A stretch of DNA of 43,158 nucleotides from an uncultured Candidatus Bathyarchaeia archaeon. Its GTDB lineage: Archaea; Thermoproteota; Bathyarchaeia; TCS64. Position 1 is the first letter of the stretch. Every line of letters starts with the position of its first letter. Below are positions 2,767 to 38,277 of the stretch, piece after piece. Under the pieces are notes generated by a model. That model ran no database searches, had not been told where the DNA came from, and saw only the letters and a program-made list of their open reading frames with translations. The DNA is taken from positions 1 through 43,158 of the forward strand of contig CAZTZC010000003.1 in NCBI GenBank assembly GCA_964618045.1. Reading direction: 5' to 3'. The translations under genes and the position numbers were made by a program.

Positions 2767-3381
2767 ATGAGCGTAGAACGAAATGTAGTATACTTCGAGA
2801 AGCCGGGAAAGGAGCACACAGAGGCGACGCTGAGGATCGCGGTGGAGGCCGCCAAGGAACGAGGCATCGACACAGTCCTCGTATCAAGCACAACGGGCTA
2901 CACCGCCGAGAAGGCGGCTGAGATTTTCAAGGGGAGCGGGCTGAAGCTCGTGATCGTGACCCACCAGACGGGGTACAGGGACCCCGGAGTCCAGCTATTC
3001 CCAGACGAGCTCAGGAAGAAGCTGGTGAAACAGGGGGTCGAAGTGGTCACGTGCACCGATGTGCTCACGGGCACCGTGGACGTAGGCATGAGCCGCCAGA
3101 GGCCCCCCAAGACCGAGTCTCTGGACGCGCGGCTGCCCTACATAATGCCGCCGACCAACGTGGTGATCGCAAACACTCTGCGGCTCTTCAGCCAGGGCGT
3201 GAAGGTCTGCGCCGAGATAGCCATGATGGCGGTGGACAGCAACGCCGTGCCTTCGGGGAAGATGGTGGCGTGCGTAGCCGGGAGCCACGATGGCGTAGAC
3301 ACTGCCATGGTGTTGACCGCCGCCGAGTCGGGCAGGATCAGGGACATGAAGCTCCACGAGATTCTGTGCAAACCCTTCTAA
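2767..3381 (+). CDS. pyruvate kinase alpha/beta (C-terminal) domain-like protein
   Basis: VVYFEKPGKEHTEATLRIAVEAAKERGIDTVLVSSTTG...LRLFSQGVKVCAEIAMMA...HEILCKP matches the standalone archaeal PK C-terminal-domain family as I recall it. The ATG at 2767 follows a TTG at 2758. Confidence 0.7.
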   Translation: MSVERNVVYFEKPGKEHTEATLRIAVEAAKERGIDTVLVSSTTGYTAEKAAEIFKGSGLKLVIVTHQTGYRDPGVQLFPDELRKKLVKQGVEVVTCTDVLTGTVDVGMSRQRPPKTESLDARLPYIMPPTNVVIANTLRLFSQGVKVCAEIAMMAVDSNAVPSGKMVACVAGSHDGVDTAMVLTAAESGRIRDMKLHEILCKPF

Positions 3382-32655: not shown

Positions 32656-33477
32656 ATGGCTGTGGGAACCTGGAAACTTAAACTCGTGTATTTCTCGCCC
32701 ACAGGTACATCAAAGAGGACGGCGGAGGCAGTCGCCAAGGGCCTGGGCCCAGAGTTCGACTGCGTCGATTTGACTTTACCTGATGCCGAAACCAAGAAAC
32801 ACAGCTTCAAACTAGATGAATTGGCGGTCATCGCGGTCCCTGTGTACAGTGGACGCGTTCCCGTGACGGCTGTGAGACGATTAAAAAAAGTTAGGGGGAG
32901 GCAGTGCCCCGCTGTCCTCATCGTGGTGTACGGTAACAGAGCCTTCGAGGACGCCTTGCTTGAACTCAAGGACATCGCGCTGGAGCAGGGCTTCCTGCCA
33001 ATCGCCGGTGCGGCGTTTATAGGAGAACACAGCTTCGACGCGCCTGAGACGCCGATAGCCACGGGCCGCCCGGATAAGGCAGATTTGGATAAGGCGGAGG
33101 CGTTCGGTGGGCAGGTCAAAGAAATACTTGTACAGGGCTCGGTGCATGAGCTAGAGGTTCCCGGGCACAGACCCTACAGGGAAAATAGTGGCTGGAATAA
33201 GCCTTACGAGGAAAGAGAAAAAGCTGACCTATGGTCACCTGAGACCAATACCGAAGTCTGCATACTGTGCGGTTTGTGCGCAAGTGTTTGTCCGACAGCC
33301 GCCGTGAACGTCGCTGGTTCGGTGAAGACGGATAAAGCGGACTGTATCGCTTGCACCGCGTGCGTAAAGAGCTGCCCGACGGGTGCAAGAATCTGGACGC
33401 ATGAGCGGGTGAAGAAGGCCGCCGCTTGGCTCTACGCCAATTGTAGTGAAAGAAGAGAGCCTGAGACTTTCCTTTAA
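32656..33477 (+). CDS. flavodoxin-like domain fused to a 2x[4Fe-4S] ferredoxin domain
   Basis: The N-terminus LVYFSPTGTSKRTAEAV is followed by CILCGLCASVCP and CIACTACVKSCP. Confidence 0.75.
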   Translation: MAVGTWKLKLVYFSPTGTSKRTAEAVAKGLGPEFDCVDLTLPDAETKKHSFKLDELAVIAVPVYSGRVPVTAVRRLKKVRGRQCPAVLIVVYGNRAFEDALLELKDIALEQGFLPIAGAAFIGEHSFDAPETPIATGRPDKADLDKAEAFGGQVKEILVQGSVHELEVPGHRPYRENSGWNKPYEEREKADLWSPETNTEVCILCGLCASVCPTAAVNVAGSVKTDKADCIACTACVKSCPTGARIWTHERVKKAAAWLYANCSERREPETFL

Positions 33478-33495
33478 TCGATTTTCAAGTCAACT

Positions 33496-33610
33496 TGTAG
33501 TCAATACTATACCTTCAACCTGTAGTCAATACTACATGTTTAATCCATAGTCAATACTATTTGATCTACTTGTAGTCAATACTACAGGTTGAACCTGTAG
33601 TGAATACTAT
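33496..33610. repeat. five direct copies of a 15-bp quasi-palindrome at an exact 25-bp period
   Basis: The copies are TGTAGTCAATACTAT (33496), TGTAGTCAATACTAC (33521), CATAGTCAATACTAT (33546), TGTAGTCAATACTAC (33571) and TGTAGTGAATACTAT (33596). The 10-bp intervening segments are accttcaacc, atgtttaatc, ttgatctact and aggttgaacc. The core is GTAGT-N4-ACTAC. Confidence 0.9.
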
Positions 33611-33876
33611 ATGTTGGTCTCGACGCATCTAAACATCCTCGATTCTCCTCCGTAGTGGTTTACTAGTCTCCGTACCGCCTGGGCTTCACTGTGGCTTTCT
33701 GTCCTGTAGACGCTGTACTGTATTAGGCCGCCTCCGCGTAAGTCGCTTATCCTTTTCAGGTTCACCCAGAAGTTGGGGTTGGGCTTGTGTTCGATGAAGT
33801 CGTAGACTATTATCCAGCTGCCAGCCTCGTCCTTGTGCTCGTCGAGTAGCTGGTGGGCGATTGAGCGGTTAGCCAT
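33607..33876 (-). CDS. 89-aa orphan protein with a Cas2/VapD-like beta-alpha-beta sequence pattern
   Basis: SWIIVYDF...FWVNLKRISDL...GLIQYSVYRTESHSEAQAVRRLVNHYGG...RMFRCVE recalls the Cas2 pattern xIVYDI..(helix)..VQYSVFE..(helix)..beta. Codon style is like the host. Its stop codon lies inside repeat copy 5. Confidence 0.5.
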   Translation of the reverse strand: MANRSIAHQLLDEHKDEAGSWIIVYDFIEHKPNPNFWVNLKRISDLRGGGLIQYSVYRTESHSEAQAVRRLVNHYGGESRMFRCVETNI

Positions 33877-33882
33877 TTAACC

Positions 33883-33897
33883 TATAGTTAATACTAC
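33883..33897. promoter_or_regulatory. sixth copy of the 15-bp motif, 7 nt upstream of the small gene's start codon
   Basis: TATAGTTAATACTAC is followed by aggttga. The same 7 nt follow array copy 4. Confidence 0.5.
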
Positions 33898-33969
33898 AGG
33901 TTGATTTCTAGAGTGTGCACTGCCCCTGTAAAACCTCGTGACCACCAACTACGTCATAATAATGGGAGT

Positions 33970-35115
33970 TTAGCCTCTCCACACCTTCTTGAAGAGCCTG
34001 AGGAAGTTGCCGCCCAGGATGCCATTGACCTCTTGGTCCGAGTAGCCCCGGGCCACGAGGCCCTTCGTGAGGTTGGGCATGTGCTCGAGCCAGCCGTAGC
34101 CCCACGACGCGTCCATGGGGGTGAAGTAGTCGACGTCGATCCTGTCGGGGTGCTTCCAGATGTGGGCCGCCCTCGTGACGCTGTTCCTGAAGTCTAGGTC
34201 GGAGCCGAAGCCGACGTGGCTGGCCCCCACGAGGTCGACGGTGGCGTCCACCTGGTCCATGAGGTCGTCGGTGAGGGTTGAGTCCCCCGTCTTCTTCGCG
34301 AAGTATGGCGTCACGCCGATGACCCCGCCCTTCTCGGCGCAGGCCTGGAGGGCGTCGTCGGTCTTTCCCCTCTGCTGCGAGTACCTGAGGAACTCGCCGT
34401 AGGGGCCGCTGCTCATCCAGGCGGCGTAGCCTCCCATCTCCCTGGGGGTTGAGGAGCGGGGGATGACGTGGGTGAAGCTAACTGGGTCCCTGCTCGTCTC
34501 GATGGCCTCCATGACGCTGGTGTCCCCGGTGTGGCTCAGGTCTATGAGGATGCCCTGCCTGTTCATCTCCTCCACGAGCTTGACGCCGTAGTTGCTGAGC
34601 CCGGCATCGCAGCGCTCAGTGCAGCCGTCCCCCGCCTCGTTCCTGCTGTTGTAGGTGAGCTGGATGATGCGTATGCCCCAGTCATGGGCCACCTCTAGGA
34701 AGCGGAGGTTCCCCTCGAGGAAGCTGCTGTCCTGGGGGCCTAGGATGATTGCGTGTCTCCCCTCCTTCTTGGCCTTCTCGATGTCCGAGGCCTTGAAGGC
34801 GATGAGCGCTTTTTCCTTCTTCTTCTCGGCCCACTCGTGGTACTCCCCGAGCTCGGTGAGGGCGTCGTTGAAGGCGCGTCCCATGCAGACGGTGGCGTTG
34901 GTCGCCGTTAGCCCCCCCTTGAGGACGTCGTCGATCCATATGTCCTCCCCGACGTAGTTGATGAACGCGACGATGCTCGCGTCGATGACGACGCTCTCAC
35001 GGTGGAGCGCCAGGGCGTGGTCCCTCTCGTCGTTGCTCAGTTCGATGTAGCTTCTAGACAAGTGTATCGAGATTAAGAATGTCTCGGGGTTTAAATCACC
35101 TACCTGTCCCAACAT
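33970..35115 (-). CDS. M19-family membrane dipeptidase
   Basis: ESVVIDA, IRIIQLTYNSRNEAGDGC, GLSNYGVKLVEEMNRQGILIDLSHTGD and GFGSDLDF are renal-dipeptidase family segments. Confidence 0.85.
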   Translation of the reverse strand: MLGQVGDLNPETFLISIHLSRSYIELSNDERDHALALHRESVVIDASIVAFINYVGEDIWIDDVLKGGLTATNATVCMGRAFNDALTELGEYHEWAEKKKEKALIAFKASDIEKAKKEGRHAIILGPQDSSFLEGNLRFLEVAHDWGIRIIQLTYNSRNEAGDGCTERCDAGLSNYGVKLVEEMNRQGILIDLSHTGDTSVMEAIETSRDPVSFTHVIPRSSTPREMGGYAAWMSSGPYGEFLRYSQQRGKTDDALQACAEKGGVIGVTPYFAKKTGDSTLTDDLMDQVDATVDLVGASHVGFGSDLDFRNSVTRAAHIWKHPDRIDVDYFTPMDASWGYGWLEHMPNLTKGLVARGYSDQEVNGILGGNFLRLFKKVWRG

Positions 35116-35232
35116 TTTAAGATGGTTCTGAGTGTTGACCCGTTTTTTATGGTATCTGGGACGTTTTTGCTTAGGATTGCTGGTGTTTTGATCCGATATA
35201 TTTAATAGGGATATGCTGATGATTTGCTGGAA

Positions 35233-35517
35233 ATGGTTCGGTACCTCGTGTTCTGTGAGATGACGCCTGAGTTCCTTCAGATGTCGCTGGAGGAGCGTAA
35301 GGAGCTGCCGCTGAGTTGGAGTCAGGTCGCCTCACAGTTTGGGGTCAAGATGCTTTTTTGGGGTATGCCTCTGGGCGTGCATGAGCACGTGGTTTGTGTG
35401 TTCGAGGCCAACGGGAGTAACGAGAAGTACTTCAAGTTCCAGAGGGAGTGGCTCGCACTGGGGACGCCGGAGGCGGGCAGGTACGTCAAGAACACCAGGA
35501 CGATAACCGTCTACTGA
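35233..35517 (+). CDS. hypothetical small protein
   Basis: 94-aa ORF from the ATG at 35233 (a TTG at 35224 is also possible). I recognise no family with confidence. Confidence 0.45.
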   Translation: MVRYLVFCEMTPEFLQMSLEERKELPLSWSQVASQFGVKMLFWGMPLGVHEHVVCVFEANGSNEKYFKFQREWLALGTPEAGRYVKNTRTITVY

Positions 35518-38022: not shown

Positions 38023-38277
38023 GGGGATTAAGCGTTTTTTGGGTTGGTCTTGTGTCATGTTACTTGTAATGTGAGGAAAAAATTTTCTGGGGCTCGGCTT
38101 GTTCCTGGTTACCGGGAATAAGCGTTTTTGGGGCGTTTTTTTTGTTTTCGGTGGATGACACTTTTGTATATGTTTGGATCATAAAGGGGTGTTTCTGGGG
38201 CTGCTTTTGGTGTGAGGGGCGTTGGTTCGCCTTTTTTCGTCTACCCCCCCTCCCCCCGGGATAAGGGTGTTTTAAGG
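38023..38277 (+). repeat. dispersed copies of a GGGAWTAAGSGT-oligoT motif in a G/T-skewed spacer
   Basis: The copies are GGGGATTAAGCGTTTTTTGGG (38023-38043), CGGGAATAAGCGTTTTTGGGG (38113-38133) and a degenerate CGGGATAAGGGTGTTTTAAGG (38257-38277). TTTCTGGGGCT occurs twice (38084-38094 and 38192-38202). A C7-T-C6 tract lies at 38244-38257. Confidence 0.6.

Follow-up and report, generated by a model that had tools for sequence, protein, structure and literature searches.

The window analysed here is a 43-kb stretch of DNA (43,158 nucleotides; contig CAZTZC010000003.1 of assembly GCA_964618045.1) from an uncultured Candidatus Bathyarchaeia archaeon, and all positions are counted over its whole length. 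It contains a small gene, an 89-aa open reading frame (ORF) on the minus strand at 33607–33876, whose product we assign, from the ORF list, its homologues, AlphaFold2 (AF2) models and profile searches, to a divergent, CRISPR-independent branch of the Cas2 superfamily. The gene is bracketed by copies of a palindrome. Five head-to-tail 25-bp units without spacers lie across its 3′ end (33491–33616; sequence reading, pattern search and Tandem Repeats Finder (TRF)), and a single copy of the same palindrome lies in front of its start codon (33878–33903). Distant homologues are accompanied by palindromes of their own, and this parallel divergence suggests that protein and repeat form a cognate pair.

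The core copies start on the plus strand, by sequence reading, at 33496, 33521, 33546, 33571, 33596 and 33883, and the period of the array is exactly 25 bp, as the original prediction had it. TRF reports 33490–33615 with a period of 25, 5.0 copies and a score of 140, the sole strong tandem array in the window. The 15-mer pattern with up to three mismatches has eight matches in the window versus 0.79 expected, and none of 100 shuffled sequences reaches eight; the two matches outside the locus carry three mismatches each and are at chance level. Six copies of one 15-mer had been claimed. Six sites are indeed present, but exact TGTAGTCAATACTAY is found in only three of them, with one mismatch in copy 5 and two each in copy 3 and the 5′ copy. 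Nor does a unit consist of 15 conserved and 10 variable base pairs. On the gene strand it is a ~24-bp palindrome, AAC-N-TRTAGT-ATTS-ACTAYA-N-GTT (24-bp duplex form, CAACCTGTAGTATTCACTACAGGTTG), plus one junction base, and a second dyad, GTT-S-AAC, lies between neighbouring units (junction GGTT-S-AACC). The 13 bp between cores are the palindrome's own outer arms; since the supposedly variable 10-mers are these outer arms together with the junction, the array has no spacers. A 50-bp duplication unit, also proposed, finds no reflection in the unit identities, which are 78%, 76% and 86% at offsets of 25, 50 and 75 bp. The 15-mer of the 5′ copy ends 6 nt before the ATG, rather than 7 nt as first read, and the full palindrome ends 2 nt before it.

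On the gene strand the first 3′ unit includes the last codons of the Cas2-like ORF and its TAG stop (33607–33609), which falls inside copy 5 as originally stated. The array occupies the gap between the convergent 3′ ends of this gene and of a flavodoxin-like/4Fe-4S ferredoxin gene (32656–33477, plus strand; assigned by Pfam and synteny), the stop codon of which is 13 nt from the array. Directly upstream, on the same strand as the Cas2-like gene, lies an M19 dipeptidase gene (33970–35115, minus strand; also assigned by Pfam and synteny). The module is AT-richer than its flanks, in line with the first impression, with a GC fraction of 0.40–0.51 over 33400–33999 versus 0.52–0.68 in the flanks. 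No spaced CRISPR-like repeats occur anywhere in the window, and sequence reading finds no oligo-T terminator at the array on either strand. Between the M19 stop codon and the 5′ palindrome is an upstream element, GTCAC-N4-TTTTACAGGGGCAGTGCACAC-N5-GAAAT (33904–33942, minus strand), with a TATA-like octamer at 33927–33934, ~27 nt upstream of the palindrome edge. This element, a putative promoter, is conserved in the window, in L001, L044, L068, L075, L084, L098 and L104, and in two alleles that lack the gene (L027 and L097).

A search of 5.8 billion proteins returned 34 homologues of 62–108 aa (33 of them 86–108 aa) at 56–99% identity, all from metagenomes or metagenome-assembled genomes (MAGs) and mostly labelled Bathyarchaeia or Bathyarchaeota. 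Pairwise dN/dS is 0.15–0.32 with synonymous divergence up to ~0.5, and we take the ORF to be a real gene under purifying selection. Two homologues stand under bacterial labels, and contigs with the locus are deposited as Candidatus Krumholzibacteriaceae and Anaerolineae (DATKWN01, NIN69930 etc.); bacterial names on a locus of Bathyarchaeia type are most likely due to mis-binning. Public records label the family 'hypothetical protein', apart from one automatic JGI label, 'Cas2'.

The protein has a ~17-aa N-terminal arm followed by a β1-α1-β2-β3-α2-β4 core, with the invariant motifs WxxVxDF, KPNPNFW, IQYSVY and HYGG; its most conserved stretch is helix α1 (KPNPNFWxNLxRxS) and the loop before it. 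AF2 runs with 26 and 82 aligned sequences gave a pLDDT of 81 and 85 and agreed on the succession of elements: β1 (18–26), α1 (34–47), β2 (50–53), β3 (56–61), α2 (62–74) and β4 (78–84). When both models were compared with the Protein Data Bank (PDB) by Foldseek, Cas2 structures dominated the top matches (8d3l_E, 2ivy/SSO1404, 1zpw, 4es1-3, 5zyf, 3exc, 7f84 and others), with VapD lower. The Cas2 hidden Markov models of PADLOC are the only models that match the window protein (E 0.008 and 0.03), and they match its relatives down to 2e-7. A profile search of 1.84 billion cluster representatives gave 137 clusters at E < 1e-3, mostly of ~90–105 aa; the Pfam family CRISPR_Cas2 (PF09827) is matched by 15 of 64 scanned representatives at E up to 0.1, and three relatives lie above its gathering score (25.1–27.0 bits versus 23.8). 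Thus the Cas2/VapD-like fold that had been read from the protein's motif pattern is borne out, and membership of the Cas2 superfamily rests on the fold and on transitive profile evidence. Pfam and NCBIfam gave nothing usable on the window protein itself, a DUF1572 match (E 0.13) being disregarded, and their scans detected no known DNA-binding domain in it (helix-turn-helix (HTH), ribbon-helix-helix (RHH) or other). PDB sequence searches with three family alignments and one relative reached no Cas2; Ska1, gluconate dehydrogenase and thioredoxins came up as chance-level matches. Residue D26, in WIIVYDF at the end of predicted β1, is invariant in the close family and an Asp in 86% of the wide family, and is probably equivalent to the metal-binding Asp of Cas2. 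Five members of 228–268 aa (P0043, P0067, P0072, P0163 and P0170) carry an N-terminal Cas2-like domain and a C-terminal extension without a Pfam match, and may be domain fusions informative about function.

At every orthologous locus that was read, one palindrome adjoins the ATG (centre 14–15 nt upstream) and an array begins in the last codons of the gene. The array has two copies in L004, three in L002, L005 and L044, five in the window, L001 and L104, and up to seven in L068; L001 and L002 encode an identical protein yet carry five and three units, respectively. The core TAGTATTSACTA is nearly invariant while synonymous sites diverge by up to ~50%, and both the array and the 5′ copy are kept beside every orthologue, down to 56% protein identity. 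In two alleles that correspond to window positions 33440–33990 (L027:1780–2075 and L097:5965–6190) only three to seven repeat units lie between the flavodoxin and M19 genes. Alignment shows the 262-nt gene body to be cleanly absent between two adjacent units, with the upstream element retained. The gene thus takes the place of a 'spacer', and recombination between the repeats on either side has deleted it on at least two occasions.

The best case for recognition of the repeats by the protein is made by distant homologues, which are 25–44% identical to the window protein and lie in unrelated gene neighbourhoods. P0176 (39%) is accompanied by GGTGGT-TAAT-ACAACC, with two copies on the 5′ side at a period of 27 and one 9 nt after the stop codon, and P0171 (39%) by GGGTAGTCAATACGATC, with two copies abutting the ATG. 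Beside P0123 (26%) the motif is GTCCCA-AGGT-ATGGAC, with six clear copies and some weaker ones on the 5′ side, in pairs 27–28 bp apart, and two to three on the 3′ side; beside P0183 (25%) it is GTGTAA-ATCC-TTGCAC, with several copies 5′ and two 3′, the first of which overlaps the stop codon. Arms of 6 bp, a 4-bp centre and a phase of 25–28 bp are kept across clades, the sequence differs, and nearer proteins carry nearer motifs. A site abuts the ATG in five of the six clades examined. Because protein and repeat co-vary in this way, the comparison suggests that they form a cognate pair in which the protein recognises the repeats, and the earlier supposition that the two belong together is strengthened by these independent palindromes of shared geometry. 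In a Thermoprotei clade (P0099 and P0180) no shared motif was established, a candidate motif in L089 being absent from L091.

Upstream of these Thermoprotei homologues a 22–25 nt inverted repeat (AGACCCCTTCAGTTCCACTGGA and its complement) surrounds ~300 nt of non-coding sequence (L089:2552–2901 and L091:2557–2905). It is conserved between the two contigs and may mark a non-coding RNA or the boundary of a mobile element; tRNA-like sequences lie downstream of the gene, two in L089 and at least one in L091. Other distant homologues adjoin peptidase genes, M28 as well as S9/Tricorn-like (L109:3050–3301 and L109:1543–1731; L111:1–1841). The Cas2-like gene of L109 also adjoins a gene for a stand-alone AsnC-type ligand-binding (RAM) domain and a small HTH gene, neighbours that hint at a link to amino-acid sensing.

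The gene order in the window is C_GCAxxG, M24 peptidase, flavodoxin/4Fe-4S, the Cas2-like gene, M19, a 97-aa ORF, FmdE and M20, and the same order surrounds homologues of 54–76% identity, including those on contigs of 80 and 464 kb. The Cas2-like gene is thus a vertically inherited member of a conserved chromosomal peptidase cluster of Bathyarchaeia. Inspection of the syntenic loci (4 kb of flank, and shorter contigs) revealed neither a cas gene nor an integrase, Rep, ParA or antitoxin-like partner, and no other DNA-binding gene is conserved beside the arrays; no small ORF that could encode an antitoxin is conserved next to the Cas2-like gene. No Pfam domain of Cas proteins, Cas1 included, is encoded beside the distant homologues examined. 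The orphan status proposed for the gene therefore holds for the homologous loci, which is what the cas-gene search covers, the ORFs of the window not having all been scanned for cas genes. The window contains no tRNA. Relatives of the protein were not found in plasmid, phage or IMG/VR collections, and PHROGs gave no matches.

Three further features of the cluster were noted in passing. The M19 dipeptidase in the 464-kb contig (L001:2808–3905) consists of two ORFs of 109 and 253 aa, compared with a single 381-aa ORF in the window, possibly a frameshift, a pseudogene or a sequencing error. The 97-aa ORF at 35224–35517 (plus strand) has no Pfam match; with a 94-aa counterpart in the syntenic position in L001–L003, it is a conserved small gene of the cluster. 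Two copies of GGGATTAAGCGTTTTTTGGG, 90% identical and 90 nt apart, lie at 38024–38043 and 38114–38133.

The palindrome also occurs away from the gene. We scanned one genome per species (596 Gb) with an exact pattern. About 60 single matches in unrelated bacteria are at chance level (~140 expected for an 18-mer with three 2-fold positions), and therefore only contigs of Bathyarchaeia with multiple hits were used. Arrays of two to six units without a Cas2-like gene are present at about nine distinct intergenic loci in related genomes; none of these loci has an orthologue within the window. Their neighbours are an aminotransferase; OsmC and an MoCF-type gene; a DUF763 and a transglutaminase-like gene (convergent); asparaginase_2 and glutaminyl cyclase; gamma-glutamyl cyclotransferase and a MacB-FtsX permease; a 2-hydroxyacid dehydrogenase (convergent); an M24 prolidase; and a gene adjoining that of the CCA-adding enzyme. 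Many of these would fit peptide and amino-acid catabolism, as would the home M19/M20/M24 cluster. Arrays at the MacB and OsmC loci are shared by species in which the flanking proteins have diverged to 85% and 79% identity, respectively; a 420-aa gene in L101 that was considered as MacB is not its orthologue.

Of these other arrays, three separate convergent genes and none separates divergent ones; in most, the first unit is no more than 25 nt from a stop codon. Arrays also lie 3–240 nt upstream of the M24, asparaginase_2, MacB and OsmC genes, several of them 165–240 nt upstream of the starts. The copy number is low, with one exact-core tandem array in the 464-kb contig and about five clusters or motif contigs in the best-sampled MAG; in MAG CAYUTB01 the motif is present on five contigs and the Cas2-like gene on none. 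The original prediction had named a widespread operator motif as the finding that would undermine it. The motif does recur at about nine other loci, which bears that objection out in part, but its distribution is unlike that of an ordinary promoter operator.

Several gene-less loci are composite, made of long-type units, short-type GGTAGT-ATTG-ACTACC sites, conserved linkers and a GGGGAGGGGGGG tract. Short-type sites, with the core TAGT-ATTG-ACTA and G/C-rich arms (GGTAGT...ACTACC), were seen beside arrays in L025, L028, L030, L045, L046, L069 and L072, usually singly and 30–230 nt from the long-type array; L025 also has a perfect palindrome, GGGGTTAGTACTAACCCC. A G-rich tract, GGGG(G)AGGGGGG(G) or its complement, lies ~10–40 nt from arrays or short-type palindromes at gene-less loci (L069:~1085–1110, L072:~1520–1545, L045:~160–185 and ~290–305, L073:~3160–3180, and in L030/L101 about 90 nt away on the upstream side of OsmC). 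Two short-type palindromes of L045 are enclosed by a C-run and a G-run, as though these were the two sides of a long stem. Tract and palindromes could together form a composite non-coding element, BIME-like (BIME, bacterial interspersed mosaic element) or a structured RNA.

Palindromes may act as duplex DNA or as hairpins in a transcript, and the variation among units bears on this choice. Mirror positions were tallied over 90 unique units of 26 nt. The inner 4 bp (TAGT/ACTA) hardly vary and therefore say nothing about pairing. At the R/Y mirror pair we counted G-C 29, G-T 27, A-C 20 and A-T 8 times; the two half-sites vary independently. Position 5/22 is unpaired in 52 of the 90 units. Covariation is 0.185 versus 0.118 in shuffles, an excess that comes from the difference between long-type and short-type classes and not from within a class. 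A·C mismatches occur in 22–30% of units on either strand, so that neither strand is favoured by G·U pairs. Within and between arrays the asymmetric centre occurs in both orientations (ATTS and SAAT), and the arrays themselves are oriented ~50:50 relative to the adjacent gene. With independent half-sites, an unpaired position 5/22 and a flipping centre, the units therefore fit a symmetric dimer on double-stranded DNA better than a selected hairpin, and the array of hairpin RNAs envisaged at the outset gets no backing from compensatory changes.

We tentatively favour, at a little short of even chances, the reading that a dimer of the protein recognises the sequence of the 24-bp palindrome in double-stranded DNA, and that its arrays provide autoregulation and possibly gene-end insulation or control of a regulon. 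The ligand would be DNA rather than RNA, binding would be by a dimer and the outcome would be regulatory, three steps that we infer from the observed anatomy, conservation, co-variation, fold and context. Cas2 is a dimer and binds duplex DNA in Cas1–Cas2 complexes, and for this reason the fold lends support to duplex-DNA binding. A protein dimer would bind the two 6-bp arms, TRTAGT and ACTAYA, which are centred 10 bp (one helical turn) apart around the 4-bp spacer, with base contacts made by the conserved helix α1 and the N-terminal arm. Since the TATA-like octamer lies ~27 nt upstream, transcription may start at the edge of the 5′ palindrome, and occupancy of that site would repress the gene in negative autoregulation. 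The array at the stop codon would load a cooperative nucleoprotein filament phased at 25 bp. Such a filament might loop to the 5′ site over the gene, or might act as a roadblock or insulator between the convergent units, stopping polymerases that enter from the flavodoxin gene and those that read out of the Cas2-like gene. The approximately nine other arrays would place their gene ends or promoters under the control of the Cas2-like protein.

A number of observations weigh against this proposal. Binding by the protein is a prediction from sequence. For a dimer with subunits of 89 aa, a near-perfect palindrome of 24 bp is a long site. The protein lacks a basic character, with a median pI of 6.3 in its close family, and a pure DNA binder would not need the conserved Cas2-type Asp. 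The Foldseek statistics are weak (best E 5.8e-3, TM ~0.5), and no domain of the papillomavirus E2/EBNA1 type is among the Foldseek matches listed. In four clades a site overlaps or abuts the stop codon, which ordinary autoregulation does not need. The array outlasts the loss of the gene at the home locus in L027 and L097, and the distribution of the other arrays resembles that of repetitive extragenic palindromic (REP) elements and BIMEs more than that of operators. Finally, the array strand is predicted to fold with -48.4 kcal/mol (z = -5.1).

Several of these points would be at home in a REPtron-like system, in which a domesticated nuclease cleaves its cognate palindromes in folded form (hairpin or cruciform) and thereby maintains or spreads them, with BIME-like arrays as the product and any cellular roles secondary. 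We regard this as unlikely, while giving it real weight. The gene is single-copy and vertically inherited, and in at least four clades its own palindromes stand on both sides of it; each clade has its own repeat, which co-varies with the protein. The remaining clusters occupy intergenic DNA, never between divergent genes, mostly abutting stops and composite with the GGGGAGGGGGGG tract; unit number differs (five versus three) between strains with an identical protein, and the gene has been lost cleanly between two repeats. The palindromes are imperfect, with a recurrent internal mismatch, and REP-type elements likewise decay without compensation. Some Cas2 and VapD proteins are metal-dependent nucleases, and the Cas2-type Asp is conserved here. 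The chemistry of an HUH/catalytic-Tyr transposase is absent, however, and to our knowledge Cas2 does not ligate. The low copy number noted above also tells against spreading, as do arrays at orthologous positions in different species, which suggest selection on location and not recent spread. Slippage and homologous recombination account for copy change and gene loss without any enzyme.

The statistics of the units bear most directly on an RNA-level alternative, in which transcribed hairpins with a 6–10 bp stem and a 4-nt loop are bound or cleaved and so control translation, mRNA stability or 3′-end formation. Such hairpins would bracket the ORF, with 2 nt between the 5′ stem and the AUG and with the stop codon inside the first 3′ unit; the 5′ copy is predicted to form a 10-bp hairpin that would sequester an AGGU 5–8 nt before the AUG. 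The predicted folding of the array strand, the start of most arrays near stop codons and a paired-cell fraction of 83.8% versus 78.9% in shuffles fit this picture, and some Cas2 and VapD proteins are endoribonucleases. The variable stem positions, however, give no compensatory signal, A·C mismatches are frequent on either strand, and the excess covariation only separates two site classes. The loop flips (AUUS versus SAAU) within arrays whose orientation to the neighbouring gene is close to random, the motif of the P0183 clade is barely self-complementary, and several arrays lie far upstream of start codons. No Rfam family matches the repeats at gathering score; a sub-threshold group I intron match (22 bits versus 50) is ascribed to their self-complementarity. 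We consider action at the RNA level distinctly unlikely.

We put no more faith in a bolder variant, a Cas1-free partnership of REPtron-like or 'proto-CRISPR-repeat' kind in which a Cas2-family protein recognises spacer-less palindromic repeats of its own and perhaps also cuts and multiplies them. If it were true, the link between the Cas2 fold and palindromic repeats could exist outside CRISPR adaptation and might have arisen before it.

The repeats might instead be cis elements for another transcription factor, a terminator or a chromatin element, with the Cas2-like gene a mere neighbour or target. Arrays that persist after gene deletion in L027 and L097, and the five motif contigs without the gene in MAG CAYUTB01, could be read in this way, although gene absence is weak evidence because MAGs are incomplete. 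Against it stand the co-variation of protein and repeat at 25–44% identity among unrelated neighbour genes and the lack of any alternative DNA-binding gene conserved beside the arrays of the syntenic loci; we find such a factor improbable. Most doubtful of all, with hardly any probability left even when taken jointly, are the readings first put forward, a minimal or degenerate CRISPR-like locus, an iteron or centromere remnant of a decayed integrated plasmid or viral replicon, and a VapD-type toxin-antitoxin: the Cas2-family fold, the palindromic 25-nt repeats with a 4-nt centre, the AT-rich locus and the one JGI label recommend them, but there are no spacers, no leader and, in the syntenic loci, no cas1 or other cas gene, the chromosomal peptidase-cluster context is conserved across deep divergence (54–99% identity), and tRNA, integrase, Rep and ParA partners, an antitoxin ORF and plasmid, phage, IMG/VR or PHROG relatives were all looked for and not found.

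All CRISPR systems have Cas2, but what it does biochemically and how it arose are still debated; outside CRISPR its fold is met mainly in toxins of the VapD type. The family described here is a vertically inherited archaeal branch of Cas2 (137 clusters at 50% identity) without a CRISPR link, in which the palindrome arrays are lineage-specific. If the protein binds the repeats, it would represent a new class of sequence-specific nucleic-acid binder on the Cas2 fold, and would offer a tractable cis/trans pair for the uncultured Bathyarchaeia, possibly tied to the peptide catabolism that is their hallmark or to gene-end insulation. If it cuts or spreads them, it would be a second, non-HUH solution to the lifestyle of REP elements and REP-associated tyrosine transposases (RAYTs), and a living Cas2–repeat association without Cas1.

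Our searches of the literature on orphan, solo or stand-alone Cas2 and on archaeal Cas2-like proteins with palindromes found no description of this family. The nearest reports concern VapD-like nucleases, Cas2 homologues on mobile elements and viral Cas2 in viruses of Bathyarchaeia; stand-alone Cas2-fold nucleases outside CRISPR loci, such as BPSL1038, are known (PMC10491678). Like Cas2 (PF09827), the archaeal protein has ~90 aa in a ferredoxin-like β1-α1-β2-β3-α2-β4 arrangement, a YD(F/I) motif ending β1 and a (V/I)Q-x-SV(F/Y) motif in β2, and its gene adjoins palindromic direct repeats with a 4-nt centre. Unlike Cas2, it comes without cas1, spacers or other cas genes in a vertically inherited housekeeping peptidase cluster, has a conserved ~17-aa N-terminal arm and a hyper-conserved helix α1, and is not recognised by Pfam or NCBIfam. 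It is not a functional CRISPR Cas2, as cas1, spacers and a CRISPR array are all missing from its locus. It shares with VapD a stand-alone Cas2 fold outside CRISPR, VapD structures being among its Foldseek matches, but has neither an antitoxin partner nor a mobile-element context, and neither the papers found nor others known to us describe cognate repeat arrays for VapD.

Two other protein families invite comparison on structural grounds. The central 'Cas2-like' domain of PaaX (PF20803) is part of a transcription regulator, and two relatives match it below threshold (E 0.014 and 0.15); PaaX binds DNA through a separate winged-helix domain, whereas the archaeal protein has no further domain. 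In the DNA-binding domains of papillomavirus E2 and EBNA1, ferredoxin-like monomers pair sheet to sheet and use helix α1 to read a palindrome, which in the case of E2 is ACCG-N4-CGGT, with a 4-bp central spacer. The geometry of TAGT-N4-ACTA matches that site, a likeness put forward as an analogy and not as homology; such domains are absent from the Foldseek matches listed for the PDB and for viral structures, the latter being uninformative in general.

At the level of the whole system, the locus resembles REP/RAYT systems (REPtrons, BIMEs, REPINs) in having a single-copy vertical gene flanked by cognate, imperfect, clade-specific palindromes, and in its composite intergenic clusters, biased to gene 3′ ends, with variable copy number and dispersed copies. 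It differs from them in its protein, which is Cas2-like and not an HUH/Tyr transposase (no Y1_Tnp/RAYT Pfam match or HUH motif was found in the protein or family alignment), in having few clusters per genome as opposed to tens to hundreds, and in units that are strictly head-to-tail at 25 bp. With ParR/parC, omega, TubR/tubC, archaeal SegB and AspA it would share a small dimeric binder (the dimer being proposed here) beside phased tandem repeats, cooperative coating and autoregulation. Those proteins have an RHH or winged HTH fold, and, unlike theirs, the archaeal locus has no partner NTPase or plasmid context and its arrays lie at several chromosomal gene ends. By analogy, the closest models for the action of the archaeal protein would be array binders of the centromere or iteron type or, alternatively, REPtrons, although it has neither the fold that defines the first nor the transposase that defines the second. 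What is new is a small protein, predicted to bind repeats, on the unexpected scaffold of Cas2, and the comparison points to a previously undescribed partnership of protein and repeat.

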